From the IMG/VR virus record IMGVR_UViG_3300044634_002329, positions 55,986 through 119,985 of that record: a stretch of DNA of 64,000 nucleotides, one strand, 5' to 3'. A program made the translations under genes and the position numbers. The notes below the pieces were generated by a model that was not told the origin of the DNA, did no database searches, and saw only the letters and a program-made list of their open reading frames with translations. This DNA comes from a virus. Positions 1 through 56,615 of this stretch are shown piece by piece (within the stretch, counting starts at the first letter, position 1; every line of letters begins with the position of its first letter).

Positions 1-2
1 AT

Positions 3-383
3 GGATTTTTATTTACTACTTTTGAAGAAGGAAAAGTTTATATAAATTATCAAGGTGGAATGGAAGACGAAGACGGTAACTTATTGGTACCGGATCATGA
101 CTTACTTAATGAATATTATGAGTATGCTTTAAAACAAAGAATACTTGAAAATCTTTATATGAATGGTGAGGATGTATCACAAAGAATGCAACTAGTAGAA
201 CAAAGAGTTAAAGCTGCAAGAAACCAAGCATTAACTTTAGTTAATACTCCAAACTTCCAAGAAATGTATAAACTGTGGTGGACTAATAGAAGATCACAAT
301 ACAGTAAATATTATGACATGTTTAAATCACATGCACCAGATAATGATTTTTATAGACGTTTTGGAAATAAAAGAGTAATTTAA
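3..383 (+). CDS. Tail tubular/ring protein (P22 gp4-like, crAss-type), 5'-truncated
   Basis: Frame is open from the window start (GFLFTTFEEGKVYINYQGGMEDEDGNLLVPD...). The 'G.V...Y.....DEDG...+PD' pattern resembles crAss ring proteins, and the gene directly precedes the tail stabilization gene. Confidence 0.6.
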   Translation, partial: GFLFTTFEEGKVYINYQGGMEDEDGNLLVPDHDLLNEYYEYALKQRILENLYMNGEDVSQRMQLVEQRVKAARNQALTLVNTPNFQEMYKLWWTNRRSQYSKYYDMFKSHAPDNDFYRRFGNKRVI

Positions 384-384
384 T

Positions 385-9946: not shown

Positions 9947-9957
9947 TAACTTATATT

Positions 9958-12183: not shown

Positions 12184-12187
12184 ACTT

Positions 12188-12230
12188 ATGAAGTTTAGTA
12201 AACTTATAAAATTTTAATATATTTACAGTA
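12188..12230 (+). promoter_or_regulatory. Putative phage promoter/operator (AAGTTTA-G-TAAACTT palindrome plus TATATTTA)
   Basis: Second copy of the motif at 7945-7990. Confidence 0.45.
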
Positions 12231-12246
12231 TAGATAACAATAAATT

Positions 12247-15099
12247 ATGGCAACGTATTTACAAGGTGTCACAGACTACATTCCTCAGTATCAGCCTTTT
12301 CAGCCTGATTTAAATTTCTATGGAAATGTATTGCAGACAAAGCAAACACAATATGATACCAATTGGAAATCTCTAAATAAAATGTATAGTCAGTATTATA
12401 ATGCTGATTTAACAAGAGATGTCAATGTAGAAAAAAAAAATAATTACTTAAAACAAATTGAGTTTAATTTACAACGTGTATCACAATTAGATTTATCATT
12501 AGAACAAAATGTAGATCAAGCAACTCAAGTTTTTAAACCATTTTATGAAGATAAAGGTTTAGTTAAAGATATGGCATGGACTAAAAACTTTAACAATAAC
12601 TATAGCAAAGCTATGTCTTTTAAAGGAGCCTATGATGAAAAACTTAGAAATCAATATTGGGATACCGGAGTAAAAGAAATGGAGTATCTTAAAGATGAGT
12701 TTAAAAATGCATCTGATGCTAAAGCTATGACATTTGGTAATGTAGAATATACACCTTATGTTAATGTAGTAGAAAAAGCACAAAAAATTGCTAAAGATGC
12801 AAACTTGTCTATTGAGTCTGTAGATTTTTCAAAAGATGGTAGATGGATTGTTAAGACTAAAAATGGAGAACAACTTACTGAACCATTAAGTAAACTATTT
12901 GAAGCTGAGTTAGGAAATGACCCAGCTGTACAATCTATATACAAAACTCAAGCATATGTAAACCGTAAGGATTATGCTTACTCTAATGCTGCACAATTTG
13001 GTGGAGATAAGGATGCTGCAGAAATGAAGTATCTTGAAAATAGTTTTAATTTACTTAAAGCTCAAACTCAACAAAGATATGTAGGTATTAAACAAAGATC
13101 TATTGCATACCAAGCACAAATTGAAGATTTAGAAAATCAAATTAAAAATGGCAATGCATCACCACAAGTTAAAACTATGCTTGCTCAATATCAAATGAAT
13201 AAAGATATTAATGATAAAGCATTAGAAAGAGTTGAAACAGAACAAAAACAAATTAATGGTGGTCAATCTAGTACTGTTACAACAACTACTGGTTTTCAAA
13301 ATCCTTATGGGGATATTGAATCATTAAGATGGAAAGTAGATAATGGTATGGCTTCTAACTTAATGCAAAAAGATTTAGATGAAGCAGCTAATATCTTTGC
13401 TTATTCTAATTCTAAAGTTGATATTGATGCTAACCCTTATGCATTAAATGATCAAAAACATGCTCAAAATATGCAAGCTGTTGCTGCTAGAAATGCAGGT
13501 TTAGCTAGAGCTGCACAAATCCGTAATCAAGGAGAAATGCAGAAAACAATTATGAAAGCTAGATTAGATGCAGGTACACATTATATAGATGAGCAAACAG
13601 GAGAGTTAAAACCATTTGAAGCATTTGAAACAACATTTGTAGATCCTAATGATAAAGGTACAGCAACAGATAAAATGAACCTTAAGAACACTAGTACAAT
13701 GATTGCTAAAATGCAAACAGATAATGTTGCTAAACCTTACTTACAAAATACTTTATCTTTAATTGAAAGACTAGTAGATCAAAAAGTAATGACTAAAGCA
13801 GATGCTGCAAACATTTTAGGACATAGTAAAAATCCTAAAATGGATTATAAAACTTTTTCAGAAAGATTAAATAGTAATCCTTATACATTTATACGTAGTA
13901 CTATTGGAGCTCAAGACTTAGCTAAGATTAGATATAAAATGGGTACATGGTTAGGTGCCAATGGTCAACTTTCTGGTTTAACTGGTGAAGAATTTGCTAA
14001 TTATAAAAAATCAGCAGTAGCATTTGGTGATTATACTAAGTATCTTGAGGCAGATCAATCTTGGAGAAAATCTACTTCTAAAGAAGTTACTGCAGAATTA
14101 AAACATCAAGGTTTTAAAGCAGCATCACAATTGTATAATGAAAAAGGTGAATTAAGAAGTAAAAAAGAATTTAATAATGCAATTAGTCATTTAGGGTTAA
14201 GTGGTGATTATGATGAAATGGTATCTGCAGCAGGTGCAGTATATACATCTGGTAGAGTTAAAAAAGCTCCTCCAGGAATTGCTTCATTAGGAACAATGGA
14301 AGGAACCGGTAAATTTACTCCAGGTACAACAAGTATATATGTAAATCCTAAAGCTCATGGTACTAAAAGTTCTGCAATATTTGGTGAGGTAGTAAATGAC
14401 TTAAACAAATTTGATTGGGGAGCTACAGATAAAAACCGTGTTACATTTGATGGAATTAGTAAAACATCTTTTGATAAAAGAGCTGAAGAAGGATTTAGAA
14501 ATGAAGAAGGTAAAGCTTTATTAAATGCAATCAGAGGTGAAATGAATAACCCTAAAACAAAAATGGGTAATTTTAAAATTGGGGTATCTCCAGTTGCTGC
14601 CGGTACATTAAATAAAGCTGCTATTATTATTCATCCAGATGCTGAATGGTTAAAAAGTAAAGTATTTACAACAAATTCTAAAGGTGAAAAAACCGGTACC
14701 GGAATGATTAGTGCTGCACAATATGATCTTATCATGAAAAATGGTATATCATATATTACAGATTCTAAAAGTATCAATGGTAATAGTTTATACAAAAGTG
14801 CATATCAATCACCATTACAATCTTACGTAGATTATAAAGGTAGTTATACGTATGAAGACCCTGCAGATAATAGATATAAATACACTATTTCTAAAAGTAC
14901 AGTAGGTTCAGGTGATTATAAAACCACTATACAATATCCTTTATGGAATGCTGAACTAGGTAAAGAAACTATACATGTTATGTCTGAAAATGTTTCTACT
15001 CAAGGTAATAATTTAGAAATGAATAGGGATGATTATGCATTTTCTACTATTCCAGAAATAATGACATCAAATAAAGAAAGATATAATGGCAACTACTAA
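12247..15099 (+). CDS. Large putative ejected cargo protein
   Basis: 950 aa, helical, no Cys seen, first of the large-gene cluster leading to the virion RNAP. Confidence 0.55.
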   Translation: MATYLQGVTDYIPQYQPFQPDLNFYGNVLQTKQTQYDTNWKSLNKMYSQYYNADLTRDVNVEKKNNYLKQIEFNLQRVSQLDLSLEQNVDQATQVFKPFYEDKGLVKDMAWTKNFNNNYSKAMSFKGAYDEKLRNQYWDTGVKEMEYLKDEFKNASDAKAMTFGNVEYTPYVNVVEKAQKIAKDANLSIESVDFSKDGRWIVKTKNGEQLTEPLSKLFEAELGNDPAVQSIYKTQAYVNRKDYAYSNAAQFGGDKDAAEMKYLENSFNLLKAQTQQRYVGIKQRSIAYQAQIEDLENQIKNGNASPQVKTMLAQYQMNKDINDKALERVETEQKQINGGQSSTVTTTTGFQNPYGDIESLRWKVDNGMASNLMQKDLDEAANIFAYSNSKVDIDANPYALNDQKHAQNMQAVAARNAGLARAAQIRNQGEMQKTIMKARLDAGTHYIDEQTGELKPFEAFETTFVDPNDKGTATDKMNLKNTSTMIAKMQTDNVAKPYLQNTLSLIERLVDQKVMTKADAANILGHSKNPKMDYKTFSERLNSNPYTFIRSTIGAQDLAKIRYKMGTWLGANGQLSGLTGEEFANYKKSAVAFGDYTKYLEADQSWRKSTSKEVTAELKHQGFKAASQLYNEKGELRSKKEFNNAISHLGLSGDYDEMVSAAGAVYTSGRVKKAPPGIASLGTMEGTGKFTPGTTSIYVNPKAHGTKSSAIFGEVVNDLNKFDWGATDKNRVTFDGISKTSFDKRAEEGFRNEEGKALLNAIRGEMNNPKTKMGNFKIGVSPVAAGTLNKAAIIIHPDAEWLKSKVFTTNSKGEKTGTGMISAAQYDLIMKNGISYITDSKSINGNSLYKSAYQSPLQSYVDYKGSYTYEDPADNRYKYTISKSTVGSGDYKTTIQYPLWNAELGKETIHVMSENVSTQGNNLEMNRDDYAFSTIPEIMTSNKERYNGNY

Positions 15100-18000
15100 T
15101 GAAGAAACATTTAGTTCTTTGGATCCACTTGGTCCTGAGTATGGAAACATTAATCAACCAACTTTAGATAATCAAGGTTTATCGGCATTTGAAGGAGAAA
15201 GAATAAGAGATAAACAAATTAATTTTCCAACACCTCAAAGATTTACTCCTATAGCACCAGGATTAAATAATCTTGAATCACCTAATCAAAATGTTAGGAG
15301 AAATGTTGTAAACTCTGCACCAAATAAACCAGGTATAAATAAAAATAGTTCTCATCAAGATCTTGTTAATGGTATCAATGCTAAATTAAGAGCTAAGATT
15401 CAAACTAATCAAGATAAGAATTCTTATGCTAAAATCTATTCATATGATGCCGGCCCAGATGCTAATGCATTCTATAAAAGATATCAAGCATATGGACAAG
15501 AAACATTTGATAAGATTGGATTTTCTCCTTTAAGAGATAATGAAGCTTTATTTAATTCTCGTACAACAATGTGGGATGATCATGTTAGAATGATGAAACA
15601 TTCATTCTGGCCTTTATTTTCACAAGGTTTTACTGCAGGTCCAAAGAGTTTAATGAAAATGTTTAGTGGGGATTTTACTAGTTCAGATCTAGAAGAATCA
15701 AAAGCTTATGAAGAAGCAGCTGCTATAGGACAATCTAATAAAGGTGGTATAGGAGGGTTTACAAATAACCTTTTAATGAACTTTGCATACAGTGCAGGTA
15801 TCATGACTGAAGCTGTAGTAGAAGAAGTAGCTGGTATATTATTGGCTCCAGAAACATTAGGTGCCAGTTTATTTTTAACAACAGCTAACAATTTAAGAAA
15901 AGTTGGTAAAATTGCTAAAGGTGTTGATAGAGCTATTGATGGTATGAAAGCTGTTAATACTACTTTAAAATCTGTAGATAATTTTTCTAGTGCTAAAAAG
16001 TTTTGGGAAAGTACAAAAGCATTATCATCATCTTCATTTAATCCATTAAAAAATACTTTGCAAGGATTTAAAGATGCTCAAGGTACATTAAAAATTGGTA
16101 GTGAAATAAACAACTTTACTAATCTAGGTAAAGCATATAAAACTGCAGGTGGGTTTTATAAAGATGTCCGTAATATAAATATGGCTTTATCTGAAGCTAG
16201 ATTAGAAGCCGGGACAGTTGAAAATAAAATTTATGATAATTTATATAATGAATATTATAAAGAACATGGTACTTCTCCTGATGATGCACAACAATATGAA
16301 ATGATTAAACAAGCTAAGAAAGGAGCTGTTAATACTTTATATTGGAATACTGCATTAATCTATGGATCTAATACTATTACTTTTCCAAACATTGTAGGAC
16401 CAAAAGGAGGTCTTAACAACTTTATGAAAAATACAGTTAAAGAATTACAAACTGTAGAGGGTGGTAAGTTTGGCAAATTAGGTAGCATTGTATATGATAA
16501 AGCTAAAAAACAATTTGAATTTCAAGCTAATGACTTTAAAACCTATGTAAAAAACTGGGCTAAACAACCAGTATATAAATCTTTAAAAAGTACATTAGGA
16601 TATACTAAAGCTAATTTTACTGAGGGGGTACAAGAAAGCTTACAAGAGATTATCTCTGGAGCAAATGAAAGATACTATACAGATTCATTTAAAAGTCCTG
16701 TAATACAGTCTCACACATATGCTAAAGGTATATCTCAATATAACTCTATGACACAAGGAGATTATATGATGGCTGAAGCTAAAAAACAAATGTCTTCACA
16801 AGGTCTTGAAACATTTGCATCAGGATTTTTTATGGGTACATTAGCTTCACCAATTAATAAATCATTTGACTTTTTATCAGTAGGTTATAACAGAATGTTT
16901 AAACCTGAAGTATTTCAACAATACAAAGCAGAAAAAGAAAAAATTGCTACAGATACTGTAAAAAAATTAAATGAAATTGATATGAAAGATTTCTTTGATA
17001 CAAGGATGTTTAATTATGGTGTACAAGATGCAGTTAGTTCTATTAAAAAAACTGGTACAACTAAAGAAGCACATGATGCTGATCATGATGGTTTTATGTC
17101 TCAAATGGACATGTTAATGAGAACTGGTACATTAGATGTATTTAAAGATAAACTAAAAGAAATGCAACAAATGTCTCCAGAAGAAGTTGAAGAAAATATT
17201 CCAACTATACCAAAAGAAGAAGCAAAGAAATACCAAGCTAGAATTGATGACACATTAACTAAAATTGATAGAATAGAAAAAAGAAGAGATTATTATAATC
17301 AAAAGTTTCCTAATCCTGTTGATATTGAAAATGTTGATGCTAGTAATGTTATGCAGTATGAAGATGATGTAGCATTACACTATGCATGGAATGATGCAAT
17401 TAAACATGCTGTATATTTCAATGAAACATTTGAAGATACTATGCAAAGAAAAAAAGATATTGTATCTAGGTATTTATCTAAAACCCCATTAAAAGGAATG
17501 AGTCAAATTGACTCAGAAGTTTTATTTGATGGTAATAAATTAAATAATGAAATAATGATGCTTACTGATGAAGTTGCAGCATTAAAAGATTTAGATGATC
17601 CTCAAAGTAAAAAACAATTAAAAGAAAAATCTAAAAAACTTGAAGCATATGAAATTTTAAGTGATGCTAGTAATAACTTTAAAAATTTCTTTAATAGATA
17701 TGATAATACTGAAAAACTTAAAGCAAAGTTACAAAAAGAAAAAGGTGAAAAACCTGTAACAGATGAAGAATTAGAAAAAGCTCTTGATGAACAATATGGA
17801 GAATTTTCTGAAGAAAACATAGGATTATATTATGCTAACTATGCTAATGGATATAAGAAGTATTTAAAGATGATTTCTAATGATGATGATATGTTGTTTG
17901 ATCAAGACATACAAGAATCATTTATATTATTAGCAGATCATCACAAACTAGATAAAGAATCTAGAAAATTAATGAGTTATGTAAATTTACTACATGACCC

Positions 18001-21000
18001 AAATGGTTTTATTCAACAAGTTGAAAGAACTAAAGAATGGATGAAAGATCTTTATAGAAGAAGAGAAAGTTACTATAAAGAAATGGTTGACAGAGAACTT
18101 GATAATGTAGAGGATAATACATTAATGAATGCTTTAGCTGATGTTGGTATTTATATGAGTGCAGAAGACTATGCTAATTATAGTGATAATGGAATACCAC
18201 CAAAAGAATTTGTTGACAATGTAAACAAGATGGTTTACAAAAGAGGTACTCAAAAGTATAATGAAATATACAATGAATACTTAGAAAAAAAAGATAGTTT
18301 AAAAGCAAGTAAAGTAAAAAAGAAAACCGGAACTAGTACATTAAAAGATACATTTAATAAAAAACTTGAAGAGATAAATAAAAAGGAACAAGAAGAATTA
18401 AATGCATTAGCTAAATCTAAAACAAGAGCTGATGTAAAAACTTTTGAAACTAATAGTATTAATATTACAGATACTGAATTTATTAAATCTCAACTAGAAC
18501 CAGAACAATATGTAGAATTAAAATACCCAGAGAATCCAAAACTTAATAAAATTTTCTTTTTGGATAAAGATGGTGTATTAAAATATGATGATGTTAATGG
18601 TGTACCAGTTGATGAATTAGATGCAGATTTTACACAATCTGGTGCATATGAAGCTACGGTATTCAAATATACAGAAGCTGTAGATCCTGAACTTAAAAAA
18701 GAAATTCAAGATAAATATCAAAAACAAAGAGATGAAATTCTTAAAGAGTATAATAAAGATATTACATATGAAGGAGAAGAAGGAGAATTTACACCTATTC
18801 CTGAAAATGTAACAGGAGATCAAATAAAAAAAGAGCATGCTAATTTTTATCAAAAAGAAATATTACCTCTGTTTAATGCTTATCTTGAAAAAACATATCC
18901 TGATATAAATGATAGATTAAATATATTTGAAGAAGAAGAAAATGAAATATTAACTGAGTTTATTAAAACTCCTGATATTCAAGCTATTATTAAAGCTTAC
19001 AATGTTAAAAATTCTCCAGTTGAAGATAAAGCAGATTATATTTTAGAATTTAAAGGAGTTAAAACTGATACTAGTAAAGCAAGTATTGATGATCTTAAAG
19101 CTTTAATTATTAAAATTGAAAATGAAATAGAGAGTTTAAAAAATAATACTACTACAAATTTTTCTAAAAATATAATTGAACTAGAAACTGAGTTAACTAA
19201 TTTAAGAGGAGTAATAAAAGGTAGAGCACAAAAAAAATATACACCAGAACAAAAAGCAGCTATTGAAAATGTTAAAAGATTACAGGCATTAAATAAAAAA
19301 TCTGTTGAGGCCGGTGTAGTATTAGAACAAGATGACACTGTTACTGGTTTAAAGAAAGGTGCTATAGCTTACAGAATCAATGGTAAGTTTCATAGACGTG
19401 TAAGTAATGTTGTAGATAAACTTAAAAAAGAAGGTTATAATTATACATCTGAAAAAGATGTAAGAGATGCTTATGCTGAAACTATAGAAGTTGAAGGTTT
19501 AACTAATGATTCAGTTGATAAATTTATTGATGAATTAATTAAAAGAAATATTGCTGGTAGTGATGGTATATTTTTTGAAAAATTAAGATCAAGATTAAAA
19601 TCAATGGTTGTTGAACCTGTTGATGTACAAATTAAAAATTTACAAAAACAAATTGCAGAATTAAATACTAAAATAGCTGATGCAAAACTTAAAGATGAAA
19701 CAGTTAAAGAACAACAATATATAACAGCTAAAGAAAAAATTGCTGAAGAGATTATTGCACTTGAAATGAGTCAACCTAGTAATGATCAATCTGACATAGA
19801 AGCTAAAAAAGCTGAATTAAAAAAACAAATTGAAGCTTTACCTGATGATATGATTTACGGTGCTCATGTCACTCAAGATCAAGTTGCTCAAGATATATTT
19901 AATAGTCAATTTGAATATAGTTTAGGTACAGGTTTACAAGGAACAATAGGTTTAACTAGTAAAAAAGGTCTTTTAACTTTAATGAATAATTTATTAGATG
20001 GAAATTCACCACATAGAAATCAATTTGGAGTATTTATTACAGCTTGGCCTAAATCTGAGTTTGGAGAAACAACAATAAATAATAAAGTTGATTTGGATAA
20101 AATTGAATCTGACATGTTAGATAATTATCCAGAAATGAGTGAAGGTAAAATCCCAACTAAATTTAATTTCGGCTATTTTAAAAATGGTAAATTATTTACT
20201 AATAATGATAAAACAGTCACAGAAGAACCAGTAACACCAGGTCAAAATAAAACTAATCATGATGATATAGTTAAAATGCTAGATTCTAACTTAAAAGTAA
20301 AAGGTGTTATTAATCAAGTAGAGGGTAGTACTGGAGTATCAATGTCATTAGACTATTGGGATAAAAATAAAAAAGTAATTTTTTATAATCATGACCGTAC
20401 TGTCACACCAGAAGATTATGGTAAAGAAGTTGAATTAAGACTAATTCCTGTTTATCAAACAGAAGATGGTAAAGTTTTTAATAATGCAATTGAAGTATGG
20501 CAAGGTGATAGATTTTTAGGATTAGTTGCAGAAACTGATTATGTCACACCTAAAGAAGAAAAAAATCTTGTTGAAGATGTATTAGAATTGATTTCTGAAA
20601 ATACTTATGCAGATAGTAGAACTGCAGGTAACTATATAGACAAAGCTGTAAAAGATTTATTTAGTAAAGGTATCCAACCAAAATTTGTTGAAGGAGCTAT
20701 TACAAGAGAAGCTTATGACTCTTTGTTTGGACCTGATGGATATCTTACAGAATTAAAAAATCAAGCTGATAACGGTGATATATTTATTGCTAGTGACAAT
20801 TTAGTAGTATGGGATTCTGATATTATTTTACCAAATAAGGCTAAAGATAGAATAGCCGGAGAAATAGATTTACTTATTGTAGATAAAGATGGTACTACTA
20901 GAATTGTAGATATTAAAACAGGTGAACAAAGAACTTGGAACATATTTAATTCTACTCAAACAAAAGAAAATACACCAGTATTTGCTAAAAGAGAATCTTT

Positions 21001-33700: not shown

Positions 33701-36700
33701 ATACATTACAAACTGGTTTTACATTTAAAGATAAAAATACAGGTTTAGATGAAGAAGGTGCAGATAAAGCATTTTCAGATGGAGCTCAAAATAAAATATT
33801 GTTTGGACCTTCAGGTATTAGAAAAACAATAAATGGAGAAACATCAGTAGATACATATAATCCAAATGTAACTACTAAATCTACTGATGTGGTTAAAGAA
33901 GTACATCCAGCACCTGAAAAATTAAGCCCAGGAGCTTTAAAGTTAATGGCAAGAAATACTAATCAAATCTTTGGTAAAAATCTTGATAGTACAGTAGATT
34001 TTGTAATATTCTATGCTCCTGAAACAAACAATCCTTTAAGACCTAAAGGTGGTACAGGACAAGCTGTAGAAATGGCTAGAAGAAAAGGTATCCCAACTAT
34101 TAATTTAGCTAATAGTAATTGGAGAGAAGAGTTAAAAACTGCACTTGCTAATAGATCTACTCAATCACCTACTAAAGTTGAAGTAAAAGCTTTTAGAACA
34201 TCAGGTACTTTTTCATCTACAGTAGACTATGCACAAAGAGGTTCCGGAACATATTATGCATTAGATAAACCATTTCAAGAACTAGGAAGAACAGATAAAG
34301 TTGAAGAAGTAAATGTATCTTATAACCCATCTAAAACTTTAGATGCAACAACTGAAGAAGGTCAATCTAAATTTATGGAGATTAAAAGAAAAGCTGTTGA
34401 AGGTAAAACTTTTGATGAAATAAAAGATTTAAATGATGCAGTTTCTCAAGAAATGATGAATAATGGATATGAGTCATTAATTGGTTGGATTGATGAAGAT
34501 GTACCTAATGTAGGTAGAGAACTTGTTATATATCCTACTCAATCATCTACTGATACAAACTATCAATTACCACAAAATAGAGAATTAGAAGAATACGTAG
34601 CATCTGAAAAAACTATTAGAGATTTAGCTGCTAGAATGTCTGATAGAATAGGTATACCTTTTATATTTGAATCTGATAGAACTAAAGAATATAAAGGTAA
34701 ATTAGAAAGTGATAGACAAGTATTAGATGCAGATCCTGAAGATGGAGTTACTTATGGAAATGTAAAAAATACTGCTTTTATTAATTTAGCTTATGCTACA
34801 TTAGATACTCCTATACATGAAATATTAGGCCACCCTATTATCAGAGCTATTAAAAATAATACAAAAGGGACTTTTTATGAACCTAAATATGACAATTCTT
34901 TAAATCAATGGGTTATTGAAGAACATAAAATTGATGATTATGATGTTCATTTTTTTAATACAAAAAAAGAAGCTGATGCTTTTTATAAAAGTAAACAAAG
35001 TCAACTTTATCAAAACTTACTTAAAGAACTTGAAACAGGTAAAGGTAAAGAAGTATTAGATAGAATTAAAAGAGATTATAATAAAAAATTTGAAAGAGGT
35101 AAATCATTTACATTTGAAGGTAAAGATTACATTGCAGATAATGCAAGTAAAACAGGTTATAGAGATAAATATGGAAATGATGTAGAGTCTAATGAGTTAG
35201 AAATTAGTTTATTTGCTTATGAATTAAAACATAAAGATAAAATTTATTATACTTTAGAAGAGCAACAAGAAGAAGCTCTTGTAGAACTTTTAGGTATGAT
35301 GACAGCTGGAAAACTTGATGCAGTTAAAGATGGTAATTTAATTTCTCTTTTAAAAAGACTTCTTAAAGAAATAAAAACTTTTGTAAAAGATCTTTTAAAA
35401 CAAAAAGAAATAGAAATAAATAAGTTACCTGATAATATGACATTAGGGGATATATCTGATATATTAGCTTATAGTAATTCTAAACTTATACTCCCTGGTA
35501 ATGAAGTAGAATATACTACTCCTGATAATCAAAAATTTAAAACTTATCAAGAAGCAAGTAATCATATTAGTCAATTAGTTAAAAATATTAAAGATGTTGA
35601 TTTAGATAATATTAAGATTGAAAATAAAGGTATTCCTAATCATTTTCAAAAAGATACGTATCAAGGAGACAGAGACTATACTGATTGGTATTCATTTAAT
35701 GATGGAAAATATTATGTAGAACGAGATGGACAAAATTATGAAGATGGTTTTAGTAGAACAAAAGAAATAACTAAACAAGAATTTGAACAAGCTTATATAG
35801 ATTCTCAAAACTATGGAGGAATGATTGGTAAAGGTACTATTGATTCTGATATTACTTCTTTTATAGCAAAAAATAAAGAATATGAACAATCTAAAGAAAT
35901 TATAGATGAATGGAAAAAAATAAATAATATTCAATATAAACCAGAAGAAATATATAGTAGAGGTCAAGAATTTACTTCAGTTGTTGGAGCTTATTCTGAT
36001 TTTGATGTAAATCTTATGATGCAAAATTTATTATCTCATATTGAAGATAATGAAAAAGCTGGAGGTAAATTTGCAATATCAGCATTTACTAAACCTATTG
36101 ATAAAAAAATATCACATCTAGAAGGGGGAGGAGGTAAAATTAAATTTAAAATTTATCCACAATCTCAAGATATTTTATGGGCTGCTAATATTGATGTATA
36201 TTCTGGTAGTGTTTGGGATGCTGCAGACAAAGTAAATAAAGATAAAAAATCTGAATTACTTGGAGTAAGTTATACTAAATATCCTTCATTAGACAATGTA
36301 AATGCTGTACAACCTAATTTAGCTTCTATTGTAGATGATTTAGCTCATCATCATAATGAATTAGGTATTTCTTTAACTGGTAATAACTTTAGATTAGAAT
36401 ATGATGATAATATTCCTAACACAACTAAAAAAATTATTGATAGTATTAATTCTATATTAGATCAAAAATATGGTAAAATAATTAAACCTGAAATTAAAAA
36501 ACAAGAACAACAAATAATAAAATATGGGTTATTTAGTAAAGGTGCTAATGATATTTTAGATGAGTTTAATACAAAAGAAGAAGCTCAAACTGCTGTAGAT
36601 TTTAATAATAAATTATTAATTGATGGAGGAGAGTCAGCAGACTATTCTGTAGTTCCAATTAAAAATATAGGTATTCAACCAACTCAAACTAAAAATAATA

Positions 36701-37551
36701 TAAAAGAAGATATTAAAGATGTTAGAGAAAAAATAAGAAAACAATATGATGAAACTATATTTCATAAATATAGTAAAGATGAATTAGAAATTGTTCCTTT
36801 TGAAGATCAAAAAGGTTATTTTATAATTCAAACTAAACAAAAAAATGCTAATGGTTATCCATTAGATGATACTATTAATATTTTTAAATCAGAAGATTTA
36901 GCTAAAGCACATATTGAAAAAAATTATAATGAATTAAAAACAATAAAACCTAAACCAGATTATACTACACAAGCTTTAATTAATACTAAAATAGCTGCAC
37001 TTAAAGAAATAGCTAAAAAATATCCAAGAACTTTAATTAGAAATGAAGTTAAACCTATAAATGAATTAAAATCATTTAATCAATTTGAAATAGATGAATT
37101 ACCATTTCAAAAATTAAAGTCTAAATCTTTTATTAATAATAATAATATATCACCTATAGAAAATGATCAAGAAATGTTTAACCAAATGGTTAAACAAAAC
37201 AATGGTCAATACCCTAAAAGATTTGAAAATCAAGGTAGAGTTTGGTTATTAAATGCAAATAACTTATATGATTCTATTGATGATGTATCTAAAAGTATCA
37301 TTATTAAAAACATGAATATGGTTACTGGACAAATTGAACCAGAAATAAAAACAGAAACACCAGTTAATCAAGAAGAATTATTTAATTTTATACAATCAAT
37401 TAATAATTCAATTTTAAATGAAGGGTTAGATGTAATATTAGCTAATAATGGAATAAATGTACAAGATATTCTTGATGAAGCTAGTAAAGTTACAACTCAA
37501 GAAGAATTAACTGATTTAGAAAATAATTTAAAGAAATACATATGTCGTTAG
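21781..37551 (+). CDS. Virion-packaged DNA-dependent RNA polymerase polyprotein (crAss/phi14:2 gp66-like) with zincin and multiple accessory domains
   Basis: Catalytic 'GSDYDGDKL' at 29281-29307 preceded by 'PRIP'; HEAWH...EEMLAEDF zincin motif at ~24367-24522. The true start is probably ATG 21781 (TAATG overlap) rather than TTG 21772. Confidence 0.85.
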   Translation: MITCPINDPEIVSLLYKLIVIKLNNFSSNETFDHEAFLKELYDEIADKTSPEVAAKYLQSVPRLLSLAAIKRFENIDIDTTALNKLSRKFKSETGIAEIIQTYSTDSDEELRRKIKEKEDAENKIPVESTSDQPVILLPTRFKAASAASGTLQQFVKVDPKKKGQHDEVIIETIDPELETTINVTNKINDLQNTTLPGEELKYQGKTLRLKVQDVVGFRKEYSDKLRKNDEESLKRSSAILAQGSKLGDVIPINAQSLLVITDDNGNFLYFDKDGNITDEANGNIVYQFLRPVRKDGKEYTVTNVYTTESSVATPEQIAQQTYDQNSDIDYDAYVKAIKQQQQEEFKALYGIQEQIKSGDKTSILLPITGVSSGVPSNLSSTIIYLNELSKFPGLDIASILTSINVITSDTASFKKGQTTVRINGGEFKINNPRMNEELMSEIAAMLMDPNPPASLKQIYLNQFIDTTKDTTRRIQFNSIDNTIELYKKTSTKNSSGTYTFGKVINRTIDLEKLKNNGYTEQERQDLEKDILQYLREGFKNGPTLININSSLIKNQKEFIRYNRDTKEPYSGDYLEFISSFPAEINLINADPGIYNRSIEFAFPGSFIDDLQKADKNLNNTEGENLSFEEILKRKEEEDNRNPVKVEARDIIANSKSEEFLNKVKNYPGNTNINPTDNFLLVAYFKAAIKEKNYTKEFANSIKNEIQSLLPLNPLSVEQVKMIEDEIDAIKEVPSPSQTQAEIKDQVEVPGAPDPINNATTNGMFTDNDIDDDIFKGLFRRGSKDEKIAREKVIAARTWWNSPELAPLRKVISLEHVANLVNSDVYASFITNASKIANPDGTLGKITANTAKGSVFQNLTIYHEAWHGFSQLFLSKQDKIDLYEELRNYTTPKGATPYATKSYLELEEMLAEDFRNYVKTGKAKASSPKRNTLFRRMVEFLKQLFGKGLKKFNNKDVLINSLNSPMAKELFDKLYIGDINKYTPLIDNSMFYSLDRGVPSVNNKRNVVLSKQDSTLAVSSIDGIFSQILNTINEKARVAGKSGAKGANIAVFLEPSRRAALYVQAKKELESKLKIEKDKLAKVEGIVNFSTLTTLQEIKDNAAGVFVNSEGKNKFIFLKSQIDDFTILEPSLKANGDRVKGEKYHGIKIVSDFYKHKTILNGKVPADIMVVTSMAQAEEQLKNYIDGNSKAYTKVIDNKLENPVLLTEDQEFIQDNIRILQTMLDNYGDENSGLVKYHMENSDFEISKTKYELDVIDENNDEAISENDLENSGRDIETFNDVKKHKQSLLQTMSKETTMLLKSLIKTDGNNVVKNRLGFPERVDFIKVFNIVAKTIGGVRDRELAYNLLKAEASKFPEIQQLIDFKYPDPNTKNSYEFDISRQFLQDFGKPKVTYKIVLAVPDEESGTIDFKLAEASLAISNITGRWQTEFVSASPSRYIKKTPDNESELNLQNILTDFSKKDELVISKAFDFAKAIGINLTVNDNIKSDFDSKLEYYGIPFMFNIVKDFAQIEQDLNNPATAASVSSAQKTFLNKFKANPIEVLRTAVPINILTTFPKGINENTQITRLAELQAKYGYDSATTGVITADGNTAYEDVNYSFMTGFVDAVNSVSNIRDLWTKNEYSHMAYLNPNTNTFTKNLRILNEIFDMHTGAKKPGKSLQLMNVNGTSQITEDENGNSNTEGTVTADLDPIGKGLQELHSMLGGGVSEFNRMSEKKNAYGLKVVGGIVGKTDPISYATKGADTDLYVDVIQFANNGNGEIYAINNHFLGYIQSEFDRIVKFKGNRREEYLNFTGFNNKVNDVNGVEKYAGEVFNDFDDILSKDTQNQLYALADQYANSNEVNIPLVQYLKTNSKLLKDIQTDITNYFDTVTEKYKTLYFDKLPYISKSILVKAGVPKEKLLTRKQVEEAQEDPKNIQTVLKAFMYNDWIHRFEVSSLMFGDRAQWNHGKEEQPKRIPGAQSDGIGFLYDQSSRDFINDVFNKTTETYGAKLTRESEDNTKYDSFKYSDVLNTAVIKDAQRESIYLAEYQAAWKKNYIEVNNYSEEEADRLVELDSKPFRKDKMDESDGIAYMTLDAYRTLHKTGRGWSVAQEALYQKVVAGETISTQDAKEFFPIYKLHYYGSLKNDLLPAMAMHKFSVAPLIPGVYPETSELGKLHKKMLKDNVQYVTFKSGSKAVTLTNGGNVDNLFANSNENSINEDFTFTVNPIFMANLKEVTVINEYYKKTLPIATQTRVIILDNLYNDGKLTNSDNAPLVNDYKNVVRDYSIVLKDELLNKIGYSLNEDGNYEGDITTFVQVLREELGNRDIPEQLLKLLNTTKEGKLSIDLSLHPQAETIEKLLLSIIQTTLIKQQTNGEPLTQMPSTFTNGIWDDQYKTLTNPADIERLLGTNTLPFYNINKTTGKTNLMKVAIALQGEYKNLLKAKDLDGNVIGTIDRLNELIKDDKWLEQNRDAISLFGPRIPNDATNTIEGAEVWHFFNESFGNAIILPTEIVAKAGSDYDGDKLFMSMPNVDKDGNYINKGIDNYDALLKETIALEKDGKLGKDRLKSGQLIELQKKYLQNLYLKKSIDLLTLPDNFGYLTKPNQTYLVEKYAEDLQKLGTGYNRYESATHGSPKKSVGPKDKQKDVVSPTRQNEISHQLYLHDANLSLEPSLGVQANFTKSHVLYKTVGVNMPATYTTSYTNFSVNRVIKSLIELPMVMRLKHNTAINEAGKEVISLSGEKTQLGTRITDINSHALNGILDRAKNSFPFDLKLVPEAINTLNYMLQAGVSEEEIFYFLTQPLIVEYIKDQKLRKSPYYSIVYGESKGSKTTASANAIIQNMINVKGVDFTSYLADINLLKLKATLESYAASAKKSKEAYNVKLKDESILYTLTPEEIINKINNGDIDPTTIKKIFNSNAKDAFEEVTESKELFTDKNYAFTTQAFSNAFLPEGIINIDFLKKHIKDSSSPAALTLFFNYLELEQQYEGMSELEKVFSPDKIKLTTAQQVIKREEAYKNLYENSKVDKASLERLTKQSVLSSFNQDKLILDLVTPLFPLRLSNEISSYITKLFNDPTESRKIRNKFGTGIDGQEFFTKKYQNAIVAYIYQNYMSRFVNADGTLTNIPESYNGKPVLVNNDINTNVIIDKDSIIINSDRVRTEYQRKVYLSANKNVGYTGDKFAKDPFNTLNSYYRYTIEKELLRTSIPIESLEQNKDFLNLLNTYNTADEAYESYISEKALANTYNRSYIVGTAKYSYTEKVLNIIKEFENTNLKDKYPILAQLAPVKTKKAVKLIQLNDKQIAKGVLGEIYINNLINLANPIIKKVDDPIDNQRISDVFKDFSLMMFYQHGVGNSKLGFVNAIDPEVYTESMTKFSQQFLNNYLSDDSLTDVYNMLMAPGNLFGNFEIKDVENEKPYSKADQLTPFELPGSTSPVANIPQNKISGVASFGSTVTANDEVIKVLGANAHSIDMIESGLRTRTTRSESEMAKYAVKVGDIIKHFGKSADGSTKTILAKVTAIHPKGTPGFKGTWNKEGWRSEDVNVIDRFKDGAAAIEFEIINNNQTPGSTSVNKKVIKNEKGLIIINNAIPTEKTIDIVKNNKDFIQETSFKQTNGSVSWGYGMQWIRSSALTDKQKQGVQIGKQIGGQEVTEEMVNQLLAGTEAKKIKGMPLYVYTNIDINGNRLPNIPNEIIEILLEQGIDVSQYDASYNSVYDKNDKGSLIVHQDNTEFNTSPIITVSLGRPMKFITYQLKDSSNYSFGTNAKNRYELTLNTISNKLVAGKLAPELKRQKNFKGDEVIGYGELTPGNLAKYAKMVGEESAALDALANSIEKIEEHTLTNGAVLVFSKENRNVFHEIIFDEETDALPMPKGFPELTINKAYKGLGKPDQMVKTKDYRVVLTLRKVNGTKELDVVDTNKLTASQPTQVPTPIQPISDIDNSNKPVLNSLPNKSSIPTMTYAGIGSRQTPQEVLNKMTEVAKYLDGLGYTLQTGFTFKDKNTGLDEEGADKAFSDGAQNKILFGPSGIRKTINGETSVDTYNPNVTTKSTDVVKEVHPAPEKLSPGALKLMARNTNQIFGKNLDSTVDFVIFYAPETNNPLRPKGGTGQAVEMARRKGIPTINLANSNWREELKTALANRSTQSPTKVEVKAFRTSGTFSSTVDYAQRGSGTYYALDKPFQELGRTDKVEEVNVSYNPSKTLDATTEEGQSKFMEIKRKAVEGKTFDEIKDLNDAVSQEMMNNGYESLIGWIDEDVPNVGRELVIYPTQSSTDTNYQLPQNRELEEYVASEKTIRDLAARMSDRIGIPFIFESDRTKEYKGKLESDRQVLDADPEDGVTYGNVKNTAFINLAYATLDTPIHEILGHPIIRAIKNNTKGTFYEPKYDNSLNQWVIEEHKIDDYDVHFFNTKKEADAFYKSKQSQLYQNLLKELETGKGKEVLDRIKRDYNKKFERGKSFTFEGKDYIADNASKTGYRDKYGNDVESNELEISLFAYELKHKDKIYYTLEEQQEEALVELLGMMTAGKLDAVKDGNLISLLKRLLKEIKTFVKDLLKQKEIEINKLPDNMTLGDISDILAYSNSKLILPGNEVEYTTPDNQKFKTYQEASNHISQLVKNIKDVDLDNIKIENKGIPNHFQKDTYQGDRDYTDWYSFNDGKYYVERDGQNYEDGFSRTKEITKQEFEQAYIDSQNYGGMIGKGTIDSDITSFIAKNKEYEQSKEIIDEWKKINNIQYKPEEIYSRGQEFTSVVGAYSDFDVNLMMQNLLSHIEDNEKAGGKFAISAFTKPIDKKISHLEGGGGKIKFKIYPQSQDILWAANIDVYSGSVWDAADKVNKDKKSELLGVSYTKYPSLDNVNAVQPNLASIVDDLAHHHNELGISLTGNNFRLEYDDNIPNTTKKIIDSINSILDQKYGKIIKPEIKKQEQQIIKYGLFSKGANDILDEFNTKEEAQTAVDFNNKLLIDGGESADYSVVPIKNIGIQPTQTKNNIKEDIKDVREKIRKQYDETIFHKYSKDELEIVPFEDQKGYFIIQTKQKNANGYPLDDTINIFKSEDLAKAHIEKNYNELKTIKPKPDYTTQALINTKIAALKEIAKKYPRTLIRNEVKPINELKSFNQFEIDELPFQKLKSKSFINNNNISPIENDQEMFNQMVKQNNGQYPKRFENQGRVWLLNANNLYDSIDDVSKSIIIKNMNMVTGQIEPEIKTETPVNQEELFNFIQSINNSILNEGLDVILANNGINVQDILDEASKVTTQEELTDLENNLKKYICR

Positions 37552-40500
37552 TATCATGCCCTATTAAGTCAAGTAAAGAATATCAAGACATCTTGGCTCA
37601 AGCTAATAATAATGAAGAGGAGGCTCTAAGACTTTGGAATGAAAATGAAAAGTTAAGAGACAATCCAGATCTTAATGAGACTACAGAAGAAACTACTGTA
37701 GAGGAAGAAGAAGATTCTCCATTTAAAGAGTTAATAGACAAAGTAATTTTATTTTTAAAGAAACAGTTAAATGATTTAAAAAAGAAAAAACTTGTTGATC
37801 AGACAGCTAAAGAAAAAAGTTTAGCTGAATTGATTGCAAATATTGAAGCTGCAGAAGGAGTTCAAAGTATAAATATTTTTATTGATGATGCTATTAAATT
37901 ATCTAGACAAGCAGAAGCTAGATTAAAAACAATATTAGCTAATAAAGAAAATCTTACACCACATCAAATGATAGAGCAATTGACTAGTGTAAATGACTTT
38001 ATTAAAGGTTATGCAATCATTGATGAAATAGATAAGGTTGATATTGAAGAATTCATGAATGATGAAACTTTAATTACTGGTATAGAATTAAGTAAAATGA
38101 ATCCTAAATCAAAAATTAAAGAAATCAAGTTAATCAAAGATGAAATCAATAAACAATATATTGAAAAAGGTATTCCCTTATTAGCAGAATTTCTTAGTGA
38201 TTTTTCTCCAGAAACTTTAAAAGAACAAGGAAGTAAACTAATAGAAACAGCTGAGAAAAAAATTCAAGAAATTGAAGCTTCTAGTAAAACACCTGAGCAA
38301 AAAGCAAAAGAAATAGCACCTCTTCAAGATAGAATAGATAATATTTTAAGATCAGGTGGTGATAAAGATTCTTTAATTAAATCTCTTAAAGAAGCTACTA
38401 AAGACCAAGGAGTATTAGATTTTTTATTGGCACCACTTATTAGTTCTCCAGATAGTGTATTAGCATTATTTGCTAAGAGTATTAAAAGAGCTTTGCAAAT
38501 GGCTGCATTAAAAGATATTGAATTTGAAAAAAAAATAACTCCGGAATTTCAAAAATATGCTAAAGCTAGAGGTTCACAACAAAATGTAAAAGAATTTAAT
38601 AAACCTCTATTTGAAGAAGTTGATTATGTTTATAAAGACAAAAATGGTAAAGAAGTTACTATTAAAAGAGCTGCATTTGTTCAAAAGTTTGATATGAATA
38701 AATATAATAAAGCTCAGTCTGAATTATACAAATCATTAGGAGAAAAACCTACAGATGCTAAATCATTAGGTGCATGGAAAAAAAGAAGAAATAATTGGTA
38801 TAGACTTAATACACAATCTGTTAGTAAAGAAAAAATTGCAGAAATTGATCAAGCTAAGAAAAAAGAATTAACTGATAAAATCATTACTGCAGAAGAATAT
38901 CAAACATGGTTAGATGAAGACAGAGTAAAAGAAATTACAGAACCATCTGATCAATATCTTAATGATAAATGGCTGGCTTTATATAATATAGATGGTACCC
39001 CTAAAAATAAACTAGGAGATCATCATAAATTTTTATTAGATCAATATTTATCAGATCAAAAAAAACTACCTGTATCACAAAGACCAAACTTTTTTGTACC
39101 ATCAATTGAAAAAACAGATGCAGATAGATTAACTAGTAATTCTACAAAAGAATTTTTAAAAGATAAAATAACAGATCAATTTAAACTTAAATCATATGAT
39201 GCAGCATCTGGTATTACATCTTTATCAAATGAAGATGCTAGATTTATACCTGTATACTATAATCAAGTAATGGATATTAATGATGTAAGTTTAGACTTAA
39301 CTAGATCTATCATGATGTTTCATTCAATGACAAATAAATATGAAGCATTAAATAACTATCATGGTGAGATATCATTAATGAAAGCTGTTATTGGAAATAG
39401 AGAAGTAGCTAAAACAAATAGTAAAGGTAAAGCAATCATAGATGCATTTGCAGAAAAAAATGGACTTACAGATTTTATTAAAAAAAATGGAGAAAGTTAT
39501 TCTGAAAAACACTTAAATGCATTTATAGATATGGTTGTATATGGTGAGATGCAGAAAGCTGAAGATATTTTTGGTATCTCAGCAACTAAGCTGACTAACT
39601 CAATTATGGGATTTTCTGCTATAACTACTATATCAATGGATGTTTTAAAAGGTACAGCTAATTCTATACAAGCAAACATTCAAGTATTAATTGAAGCAAA
39701 CTCTGGTGAGTTCTTTGGTAAGAAAAATTTAGCAAAAGGTAAAGCAAAGTTTTGGAGTAAAGCTGCTCCTGCAATGGTATCTGATTGGGGAAAACCAACT
39801 CCTACTAGTTTGTATGGTCAACTACATCAATTGTATGACCCAATGCAAGGAAGATATAAAGATCAATATGGTAAAAATGTAACAGCTACAACGGCTAATA
39901 AATTGATTAGAACAGATACTTTATTTTTCAATCAGCATTTTGGAGAACTTGAAATAGCAACTACTACATTATATGCATTAATGGATAATACCATGGTAAA
40001 AACAAATGATGGTAGAGAGATTACATTATTAGCTGCATATGAAGAGTTTGGTGTAAATGATATATTTGATAAAACAGATTTTACTTTAAACAAACAACTT
40101 GATTTACAAGATAGAATACATGCTTTAAATAAAAGAATGCATGGAGTCTATAATGATTTTGATAAAGGTACAGCACAAAGGTTTTCATTAGGAAGAGTAG
40201 CTCTAATGTATAGAAAACATGTTGTACCAGGATATACTAGAAGGTTTAAAAAACTAGGAGCAGATCAAGAATTAGGTGCATATACTGAGGGTTATTATAG
40301 AGTTTTTTACGATACTGTTTTAAAAGATTTAACCAAATTTAAATTCAATATAGTTAAAAACTGGTCAACTTATGATTCATTTGAACAAGCTAATATTAAA
40401 AGAGTAATTGCTGAAATGGGTATTATAGCTTCAACAGCATTAATTATCATGATACTAGAAGCTGCTGGAGATGATGATGAGGATTTAAAAACTAATTTTG

Positions 40501-40808
40501 CTTATAACTTCTTATTATATGAAGCAATAAGAATGAGATCAGAAACATCTTCTTATATCTGGCTTCCTGATGCTTACCGTATTGTAAAATCACCTTCAGC
40601 TATTACCGGTACATTAGATAGAACTATAAAATTTATGGGTCAAATAATGCCTTGGAATATCACTGAAGAATATGAAAGAAAAACAGGAATATGGAATGCC
40701 GGTGATAATAAAGCATGGGCATACTTTTTAAGATTAATGGGTTATTCTGGATACAATTTAACTCCAGAAGAAGCAATCAAAAGTTTCAAATCTACATTCG
40801 TTAAATAA
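37542..40808 (+). CDS. Large cargo/ejection protein (last of the giant-gene cluster)
   Basis: 1088 aa, helical, with a C-terminal hydrophobic segment (MGIIASTALIIMILEAAG) followed by DDDED, as in crAss ejection proteins. Confidence 0.6.
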   Translation: MSLVSCPIKSSKEYQDILAQANNNEEEALRLWNENEKLRDNPDLNETTEETTVEEEEDSPFKELIDKVILFLKKQLNDLKKKKLVDQTAKEKSLAELIANIEAAEGVQSINIFIDDAIKLSRQAEARLKTILANKENLTPHQMIEQLTSVNDFIKGYAIIDEIDKVDIEEFMNDETLITGIELSKMNPKSKIKEIKLIKDEINKQYIEKGIPLLAEFLSDFSPETLKEQGSKLIETAEKKIQEIEASSKTPEQKAKEIAPLQDRIDNILRSGGDKDSLIKSLKEATKDQGVLDFLLAPLISSPDSVLALFAKSIKRALQMAALKDIEFEKKITPEFQKYAKARGSQQNVKEFNKPLFEEVDYVYKDKNGKEVTIKRAAFVQKFDMNKYNKAQSELYKSLGEKPTDAKSLGAWKKRRNNWYRLNTQSVSKEKIAEIDQAKKKELTDKIITAEEYQTWLDEDRVKEITEPSDQYLNDKWLALYNIDGTPKNKLGDHHKFLLDQYLSDQKKLPVSQRPNFFVPSIEKTDADRLTSNSTKEFLKDKITDQFKLKSYDAASGITSLSNEDARFIPVYYNQVMDINDVSLDLTRSIMMFHSMTNKYEALNNYHGEISLMKAVIGNREVAKTNSKGKAIIDAFAEKNGLTDFIKKNGESYSEKHLNAFIDMVVYGEMQKAEDIFGISATKLTNSIMGFSAITTISMDVLKGTANSIQANIQVLIEANSGEFFGKKNLAKGKAKFWSKAAPAMVSDWGKPTPTSLYGQLHQLYDPMQGRYKDQYGKNVTATTANKLIRTDTLFFNQHFGELEIATTTLYALMDNTMVKTNDGREITLLAAYEEFGVNDIFDKTDFTLNKQLDLQDRIHALNKRMHGVYNDFDKGTAQRFSLGRVALMYRKHVVPGYTRRFKKLGADQELGAYTEGYYRVFYDTVLKDLTKFKFNIVKNWSTYDSFEQANIKRVIAEMGIIASTALIIMILEAAGDDDEDLKTNFAYNFLLYEAIRMRSETSSYIWLPDAYRIVKSPSAITGTLDRTIKFMGQIMPWNITEEYERKTGIWNAGDNKAWAYFLRLMGYSGYNLTPEEAIKSFKSTFVK

Positions 40809-55931: not shown

Positions 55932-56615
55932 TTAGTCTAAACTGAAATCAGACGAAGTAGCAGGAATAGTTAAACCATCTGGATTACCAAATTCTTCAAT
56001 ATTCTTTACTTCTAGCTTTTTCAAATGAACATTTTCATTATATGTAAGTACTTTTGCAGAATCTATAGATCCATATGCATATTTACCTCCATCAGCTTTT
56101 GCAAACCACATGTCATAATTAGTATAACCTGCATTGTTTACATATTCTTTACCAGCAACACATGTTTTAATAAACACATCTTGAAATGGTGCTGTTTTAT
56201 TAAATGCATTAACAAAATCTTCAATAGTATCATGCACATTATTTTGTTCATGAAACCATTCATTAATTCCTAATGCATTACAAAAGTTTTGCAAAAATAT
56301 CAAAATAGATTTATCTCTATTGACTTTTACACCACTTTTTGTTGTTCCATCAGCAAAAGCATACTGACTTGCTTTGACTTTTCCAACTTGTCCAAGATGA
56401 TAACCTGCATCTGGATTTTCTTTATCTAACATAAAACCTTGGAAATCAGCAATTGGTTCAGTTTCTACATTAATCATCAAGTGCTTTGCACCTTCAATAT
56501 ATGTAAACTCTTCCAAATAAATATTATTTATTTTTACTGTATGATTACCTGGAGCAATTGTTTTTGGTAATCCATTTCCATTCCCTGATGTTAAACCTTC
56601 TACACTTAAAGCCAT
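55932..56615 (-). CDS. Putative single-stranded DNA-binding protein
   Basis: Lies between the Sak4-like ATPase and primase; OB-like N-term 'PG.H.VKI' and acidic/aromatic tail 'SSDFSLD'. Confidence 0.5.
   Translation of the reverse strand: MALSVEGLTSGNGNGLPKTIAPGNHTVKINNIYLEEFTYIEGAKHLMINVETEPIADFQGFMLDKENPDAGYHLGQVGKVKASQYAFADGTTKSGVKVNRDKSILIFLQNFCNALGINEWFHEQNNVHDTIEDFVNAFNKTAPFQDVFIKTCVAGKEYVNNAGYTNYDMWFAKADGGKYAYGSIDSAKVLTYNENVHLKKLEVKNIEEFGNPDGLTIPATSSDFSLD

Follow-up and report, generated by a model that had tools for sequence, protein, structure and literature searches.

Cysteines confined to the facing ends of giant cargo proteins suggest a head-to-tail covalent tether in crassvirus virions

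The window analyzed here is a 64,000-nucleotide (nt) stretch of DNA, positions 55,986 to 119,985 of the IMG/VR record IMGVR_UViG_3300044634_002329. The record has terminal repeats and is complete at 119,985 nt, and the window forms its right-hand 64 kb. The genes of the window identify the source virus as a crassvirus. Three adjacent open reading frames (ORFs) on the + strand encode very large proteins of 2231, 5256, and 1088 amino acids (aa), which are called A (15086-21781), B (21781-37551), and C (37542-40808). Protein A is the orthologue of gp47 of phage crAss001 and gp67 of phage phi14:2. Protein B is the virion RNA polymerase (RNAP), orthologous to phi14:2 gp66 and crAss001 gp50, and protein C is the orthologue of crAss001 gp49 and phi14:2 gp65. 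The three proteins contain almost no cysteine (Cys), and the few residues that are present lie at the ends where one protein faces the next.

Protein A ends with KIINCQ, and its sole Cys is the penultimate residue, 2230. The codon, TGT at 21773-21775, is found 3 nt before the stop codon, and that stop overlaps the ATG of B. Protein B starts with MITCPIN and ends with KKYICR, and its only two Cys are residues 4 (21790-21792) and 5255 (37543-37545). Protein C starts with MSLVSCPIK and has a single Cys at residue 6 (37557-37559). The facing pairs are A 2230 with B 4 and B 5255 with C 6. An initial annotation of this DNA had reported these four end sequences, all of which were present in the ORF translations. 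It had also found, by eye, no further Cys in the three proteins and none in a 950-aa neighbor, and a computational count gave the same result: 4 Cys in the 8575 residues of A, B, and C, and 0 in the 950-aa ORF, as for two others of 648 and 741 aa. Together, the six ORFs have 4 Cys in 10,914 residues. ATG 21781 is the likelier start of B, and TTG 21772 is less likely, because relatives open with MITCPIT and MITCSINN.

The other 19 ORFs of at least 150 aa in the window were used as a comparison set and contain 78 Cys in 7726 residues (1.01%). At this rate, 86.6 Cys would be expected in A, B, and C combined, and the probability of four or fewer is 6e-32. AT-rich composition was considered as a reason for the loss of Cys and was rejected, since position-specific base composition predicts 91.5 Cys (TGY) codons (A 21.9, B 58.6, C 11.0) compared to the 4 observed (1, 2, and 1, respectively), and tryptophan (TGG) is not depleted. 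The placement of the residues is also far from random, with P = 1e-11 for four random positions landing one in each facing 7-residue end window.

The identity of the proteins was assessed with blastp. A matched crAss001 gp47 (E 2.7e-11), and C matched gp49 (E 4.7e-54) and gp65 (E 4.2e-43). The match of B to phi14:2 gp66 (E 1.2e-8) and crAss001 gp50 (E 2.9e-8) covers B 1918-2515 and contains the DYDGD metal-binding motif of two-barrel RNAP (B 2503-2507; 29287-29301, + strand). The surrounding GSDYDGDK at B 2503 corresponds to GSDFDIDK in gp66 (1361) and GSDFDVDK in gp50 (1483), and a catalytic motif of the DFDxD type has been named for two-barrel RNAP (10.1101/2020.03.07.982082). The initial annotation had labeled the middle protein an RNAP, and both the homology to gp66 and gp50 and the catalytic motif uphold the label. 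These comparisons identify A, B, and C as orthologues of the crassvirus virion RNAP cargo module of the gp47/gp50/gp49 type. A tblastn search with C matched 94 phage records, mostly Crassvirales. The first 1000 aa of B had no tblastn match in phage records, and a related-locus search with the last 699 aa of A found no relative. Sequence searches of the Protein Data Bank (PDB) using phmmer with A, B 1-5000, and C gave nothing significant.

The modules of phi14:2 and crAss001, which are orthologous to that of the window and follow muzzle and cargo genes in the same order, have the same terminal-Cys layout. In phi14:2, the sole Cys of gp67 is its last residue, 1797 of 1797, those of gp66 are 3 and 2179 of 2180, and that of gp65 is 3. 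In crAss001, gp47 has one Cys (2339 of 2341), gp50 has three (5, 1334, and 2404 of 2412), and gp49 has one (5). The layouts of cr128_1 and DAC15 are like these two. The window B is more than twice as long as gp66 or gp50 and includes additional domains, among them a 2OG-Fe(II) oxygenase. Gene A is on the strand opposite B and C in crAss001, cr128_1, IAS virus, and DAC15, and the inverted A of crAss001 and cr128_1 still has its lone C-terminal Cys. The opposite-strand position of A in these four genomes indicates that the terminal Cys is not a by-product of overlapping junctions.

Splits and fusions of the genes were informative about which ends belong together. In the closest relative (34-47% identity), A' (2050 aa) has one Cys, its last residue, and C' (1143 aa) has Cys at 4. 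Between them are two proteins, B1' (3737 aa; Cys at 4 and 3735) and B2' (308 aa; Cys at 3 and 308). B1' aligns to B 1-3383 and the end of B2' aligns to B 5133-5255, which shows that B is split in this relative and that both new ends have a Cys where the unsplit B has no internal Cys. The number of Cys per protein is, thus, 1-2-2-1. Fusions of B and C retain just the A|BC pair, as found in p-crAssphage ZA, crAss002, cr3_1, cr110_1, cr271_1, cr8_1, cr127_1, and Lbo-JY46; the carriers belong to Intestiviridae, Crevaviridae, and, for Lbo-JY46, the Leptolyngbya cyanophages. In Lbo-JY46, only one of the 2748 residues of the fusion is a Cys. A fusion of A and B (Suoliviridae cr118_1, 4946 aa) retains just the AB|C pair.

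A junction tally made by hand covered 17 genomes. Cys was found on both sides of 26 of the 28 protein breaks, and the outer ends had none (0/16 N-termini and 0/17 C-termini). The Cys pair lost on fusion was always the facing pair. This favors head-to-tail pairing over a cyclized B combined with an A-C link, and over tail-to-tail or head-to-head pairing. Head-to-tail pairing of the facing Cys is strongly supported by this comparison of gene arrangements.

Terminal Cys is also conserved in wider sets of homologues. Exactly one Cys, at position 3-6, was found in 21/21 homologues of C (21-92% identity), and the C6 column is invariant in a 27-sequence alignment. Among homologues of A, with the window's A counted, Cys was present in the last 5 residues in 66/66, there was no other Cys in 65/66, and none had an N-terminal Cys. 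Conservation of terminal Cys in syntenic giant genes had been set beforehand as a test, and it was kept across Crassvirales and in a cyanophage. Numerous internal Cys had been named as evidence to the contrary, and internal Cys proved absent or rare in the homologues. The initial annotation had further described each junction as a penultimate Cys facing an N-terminal "CPI" motif. CPI is local to this clade, and in the alignment of C just the Cys is invariant.

Eighty related loci from IMG/VR gave a similar result, with terminal Cys in A in 68/69, in C in 76/76, and in B pieces in 66/75 (N-terminal) and 71/75 (C-terminal); these loci are mostly from one dataset and are not independent, and at 80% identity their C proteins fall into 8 clusters. 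Most of the misses in B are ORFs cut at the 5' end, or B halves parted by an insert of ~0.9-1.3 kb without Cys at that break. In five loci (L007, L021, L042, L071, and L074, ~4450-5480), B is cut into two ORFs ~900 nt apart, the first ending with LRKLIGYRV and the second restarting with MAPLYIKGFL, with no Cys. The two-ORF B of several Steigviridae contigs may reflect an intron or mobile insert, and the mature protein may be continuous.

Next, the C-terminus of B was examined as a separate module (B ~5121-5256, ~135 aa; 37141-37548, + strand). It is predicted to be a compact alpha/beta domain whose last helix is followed by Cys as the second-to-last residue. The last 300 residues of B were searched against 1.84 billion representatives. 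From the 150 matches listed, 63 module proteins were picked by eye, using as the criterion that the best stretch was in about the last 170 query residues; the remaining 87 matched only the upstream domain and were left out of the module count. Among the matches listed, the module is at the extreme C-terminus of every matched host protein, and these hosts are 90-4865 aa long. A C-terminal Cys was found in 61/63 module proteins and an internal Cys in 1/63. In 23 of them, Cys is also present at position 3-5, and among these are short proteins (~170-780 aa) as well as giants. Giants of 3543-4269 aa with this module have exactly two Cys, one per end. The module Cys is invariant in 34/34 aligned sequences, where it comes after a helix of the type TQEELNKIxxKILKxIC. 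Neither this alignment nor that of the C N-terminus has a conserved His, Asp, or second Cys beside the terminal Cys.

Homology of the A C-terminus to this module was considered and rejected. A hidden Markov model (HMM; alignment-A3) matched only B and the 308-aa protein of the closest relative, and there were 0 matches among the 66 A homologues, crAss001, phi14:2, and the cyanopodophage A4.

Structure models were made for the module and for C. The model of the B C-terminal module has a predicted local distance difference test score (pLDDT) of 85.9, with >90 over segment residues 31-166, and its final helix stops at the Cys. The C model (pLDDT 74.9) has, after the N-terminal Cys, a short helical hairpin (12-39) that leads through a disordered, acidic linker (~37-58) into a body that is entirely alpha-helical. 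Foldseek with the C model found no match at E <= 0.001; a PhiM1 ejectosome chain (8vb2_A) was ranked 12th with E 0.56, which is not significant. VIA-align (wide) with the same model found generic helical bundles only (Z <= 9.5). Foldseek with the B module model found no match, and VIA-align gave as its top match the three-helix X domain of the phosphoprotein of Hendra virus (Z 7.2, root-mean-square deviation 2.1, 54 aligned residues). This likeness is limited to the final three helices of B (last 63 residues, 37360-37548), and the score is in the range of a "common arrangement". The X-domain fold of paramyxovirus phosphoproteins binds a partner helix. One complex prediction, with a large cut of C (1-800) and the last 166 residues of B, scored 0.00 and was counted neither for nor against a contact.

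Other domains were noted within A and B. B 3632-3890 (32674-33450) matched the 2OG-Fe(II) oxygenase family (AlkB-like, PF13532) with 36.1 bits against a cut-off of 31.2. This match is within B ~3400-5100, which looks like an added block because B1' of the closest relative aligns to B 1-3383 only. The domain directly before the C-terminal module (B ~4961-5120; 36661-37140) recurs internally, at varied positions, in many proteins of 500-3400 aa. A 1891-1952 (20756-20941) has a weak match to a PD-(D/E)XK nuclease family (PF12705, E 0.001) that is under the cut-off, and many A homologues have precomputed matches to PF12684 or PF12705. A probably holds a nuclease-like domain.

The three genes are part of a longer + strand array. 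The crassvirus muzzle protein (385-5769, + strand; 1794 aa; PF25731, crAss_MUZ, E 2.7e-21) precedes four ORFs encoding 723, 648, 741, and 950 aa, after which come A, B, and C. The muzzle has 19 Cys, which indicates that adjacent virion proteins are not Cys-depleted, and it served as the synteny anchor. Synteny with crAss001 gp44 to gp50 holds, except for the inversion in crAss001. The ORFs of 648, 741, and 950 aa (8000-15099, + strand; 0 Cys in 2339 residues) are placed after the muzzle like gp45 and gp46 of crAss001, and this position makes it probable that they too are cargo or ejection proteins. Neither A nor C nor any of these three ORFs could be assigned to a PHROGs or Pfam family.

The 723-aa ORF (5769-7940) has exactly four Cys, arranged as CxxC...CxxC at 324, 327, 343, and 346. 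This arrangement resembles a zinc ribbon, and the rest of the protein has no Cys. In the closest relative (26064-29123 of its contig), the place of the 741-aa ORF is taken by a 1019-aa ORF with 8 Cys as CxC pairs at 687-739, unlike the Cys-free 741-aa ORF of the window. A lone Cys is also found at residue 5 (MKKKCSKK) of a 674-aa protein of Lbo-JY46 (26806-28830 of locus L100), for which no protein end in the vicinity is an obvious partner.

The closest known case of such a link is in cyanopodophage A4 (Anabaena phage A-4L). Cryo-electron microscopy found gp27 Cys1715 disulfide-bonded to gp26 Cys5 inside the capsid (PNAS 2025, PMC12002296). In the A-4L protein sequences, Cys1715 is the sole Cys of gp27 (1717 aa) and Cys5 is the sole Cys of gp26 (1114 aa). 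These are two consecutive, large, mostly helical internal proteins with lone facing terminal Cys, like A/B and B/C. In contrast to the window, A4 is a 41.7-kb T7-like phage without a virion RNAP and has one link between two proteins, and the accessible text of the A4 paper describes no rule that tracks gene fission and fusion (PMC12002296). No A4 chain appeared in the fold-match lists of the C and B-module models, which does not show that the folds differ.

The cargo proteins of crAss001, gp47, gp49, and gp50, were detected in the virion by mass spectrometry. They probably occupy the cargo zone of the capsid, and partial unfolding is required for them to pass through constrictions of less than 50 A (PMC10172136). 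The crAss001 virion has disulfides in the tail and the gp57 dimer (PMC10172136). The phi14:2 cargo proteins are annotated as packaged from tandem mass spectrometry, and the phage of the window is uncultured. Low Cys content has been reported for the ejection proteins of Schitoviridae (N4 gp50 and DEV gp71/72/73), at 0.00075% compared to 0.865% for the proteome, and was ascribed to passage through the periplasm (PMC11445570). As with the six ORFs of the window, a giant virion RNAP and its co-ejected proteins, encoded in N4 by the gp50-52 operon, are nearly Cys-free. However, the Schitoviridae RNAP is a single-chain, T7-like enzyme of ~3,400-3,500 residues with no terminal Cys pairs described (PMC13434306 for the T7-like type). 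In the window, the cargo is spread over several genes with a Cys pair per break, and B is of the two-barrel type and not T7-like.

A functional analogy is provided by the A-B toxins, in which two chains are held on one disulfide that is needed during translocation across a membrane in an unfolded state. There is no homology, and the toxin link is not end-to-end. For clostridial neurotoxin, reducing the interchain disulfide abolishes toxicity (PMC6899712). The literature searches made here turned up no description of the terminal-Cys pattern for crassviruses. The main text of PMC10172136 does not mention cysteine, and neither the phi14:2 preprint nor the 2026 N4 paper (PMC13434306) mentions cysteine or disulfide. 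The two elements, ejected proteins devoid of Cys in Schitoviridae and a single head-to-tail disulfide in A4, are known separately. What appears to be new, as the texts consulted do not contain it, is a conserved layout of several links that takes in the virion RNAP, extends across Crassvirales, and follows gene fission and fusion.

The terminal-Cys pattern is, on the sequence evidence, selected at the protein level. We propose that the cargo proteins A, B, and C were emptied of Cys with one retained at each end facing the next protein of the module, and that the C-terminus of A would be covalently tethered to the N-terminus of B, and the C-terminus of B to the N-terminus of C, in the virion. 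A tether of the facing ends in virions is probable, with room for doubt. Its chemistry would most probably be a disulfide, because this is the simplest chemistry for two lone thiols and no neighboring metal-ligand residues are conserved. The plausibility of such a bond draws on analogy, namely the A4 gp27-gp26 bond and the disulfides elsewhere in the crAss001 virion. What we infer, beyond the Cys layout, is the bond with its chemistry and timing, the ejection of the proteins as an ordered train, and their release by reduction.

Under this proposal, the three gene products would act as a single unbranched chain of ~8,600 residues, equivalent to the fused polyprotein of other crassviruses. Links at the ends only would make the assembly unbranched, which is consistent with the purge of internal Cys, and a linear chain could be stored, kept in order, and threaded through the narrow tail. 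The linked parts could then come apart in the thiol-reducing cytoplasm. Whether the tether serves ordered threading, and not just the stabilization or stoichiometry of a packaged core as in A4, is a close call that we place slightly below even. A more complete version, a "disulfide-stitched polyprotein" in crassviruses and at least some cyanophages, is put forward tentatively as something we doubt more than we believe. Separate gene products, including the virion RNAP, would be connected by specialized modules at their termini, namely a ~135-aa C-terminal domain ending in Cys and an N-terminal Cys hairpin on a flexible linker. They would form an unbranched thread of 7,000-9,000 residues that is packaged, passes N to C through the tail in gene order, and is released as active parts when thiols are reduced in the cytoplasm. 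Evolution would freely swap peptide bonds for disulfides whenever the genes split or fuse.

Another possible explanation is that the bond is real and structural, so that a fixed stoichiometric core is held in the head like the pre-ejectosome ring of A4, without a thread in gene order. In A4, the gp27-gp26 disulfide belongs to a pentameric ring that surrounds the portal axis, and it is reported to stabilize a helix inserted into a cleft (PMC12002296). The predicted structure of B is compatible with such a role, since its C-terminal Cys caps a folded 135-aa domain and not a floppy tail. However, a structural lock would be possible anywhere on the surface, and placement at the ends only, along with the purge of internal Cys, suits an unbranched chain better. 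The equivalence with fused polyproteins also points to continuity of the chain as the selected property. A purely structural bond is, thus, considered unlikely, though it deserves to be taken seriously. It is also conceivable that the purge of Cys is the main signal, as a way to avoid mis-oxidation in storage or in the periplasm, and that the terminal Cys is meant for some other partner, such as A-A or C-C homodimers, a link to the portal, the capsid, or a different cargo protein, or contact through a metal. The suppression of Cys without terminal Cys in Schitoviridae ejection proteins, with its periplasmic explanation (PMC11445570), fits this idea, as do orphan terminal Cys in the 674-aa protein of Lbo-JY46 (Cys 5) and crAss002 gp30 (Cys at -7). 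On the other hand, the number of Cys per protein tracks gene architecture, being 1-2-1 in the three-gene form, 1-2-2-1 after a split, and 1-1 after either fusion. Fusions always drop the facing pair and outer ends are always Cys-free, neither of which would be predicted by other partners, and a metal site is not suggested by any conserved His, Asp, or second Cys adjoining the terminal Cys. We regard this explanation as improbable.

The Cys codons could also be a nucleotide by-product of the junctions, through start/stop overlap, translational coupling, or programmed -1 frameshifting to an A-B-C fusion. In the window, the TGT of B overlaps the ATG of C (ATATGTCGTTAG), and each gene is in the -1 frame of its predecessor, with an A/B overlap of 1 nt from ATG 21781 (10 nt if TTG 21772) and a B/C overlap of 10 nt. 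Yet A keeps its Cys in crAss001, cr128_1, IAS virus, and DAC15, even though it is encoded there on the opposite strand and at a distance from B. The junction geometry also varies, with a 4-nt gap and overlaps of 1 nt and 7 nt in the closest relative and a 1-nt overlap and 2-nt gap in phi14:2. The N-terminal Cys codons are outside the gene overlaps, and TGT and TGC are both used. An origin of the Cys codons in gene overlap or frameshifting was ruled out by the opposite-strand cases and the differing geometry, and we assign it next to no likelihood.

Several observations count against a covalent head-to-tail tether. The purge of Cys is not absolute, as the Intestiviridae B+C fusions have 5-14 internal Cys. 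The positions of N-terminal Cys in database proteins hinge on the start choice of gene callers, and 3 of the 26 two-sided breaks (ZA, crAss002, and cr110_1) require an internal Met (MSC) as the true start. The host cytoplasm is reducing, and the thioredoxin fold PF00085, the sole redox family searched, was not found in the complete 119,985-nt genome. A4 is an analogue and not a demonstrated homologue, since its gp26-29 are without detectable sequence similarity to A, B, and C (no blastp or phmmer match). In the crAss001 reconstruction, gp47, gp49, and gp50 were not resolved (PMC10172136). Finally, 2 of the 28 breaks are one-sided: IAS virus gp055/gp056 and cr116_1 gp051/gp049. In IAS virus (L090, 14734-23716), gp055 has Cys at 5 and -3 and the B that follows is without an N-terminal Cys; the stretch holds 68 N. 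In cr116_1 (L096, 15686-30397), an extra 833-aa protein between B and C has Cys as its last residue and no N-terminal Cys, and it is preceded by a 215-aa Cys-rich endonuclease-like ORF.

Crassviruses are the most abundant human gut phages. More than half a megadalton of protein has to be stored in their virions and delivered through a narrow tail. The cultured phages crAss001 and phi14:2 share the layout of the window, and mass spectrometry runs on crAss001 virions, both non-reduced and reduced, have already been acquired (PMC10172136). If true, the covalent tether would extend the single A4 disulfide into a general design rule, and it would explain why spreading the module over two, three, or four genes causes no loss of function. 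It would also provide a concrete mechanism by which cargo is packaged in fixed stoichiometry and delivered in order, and by which the virion RNAP is activated.

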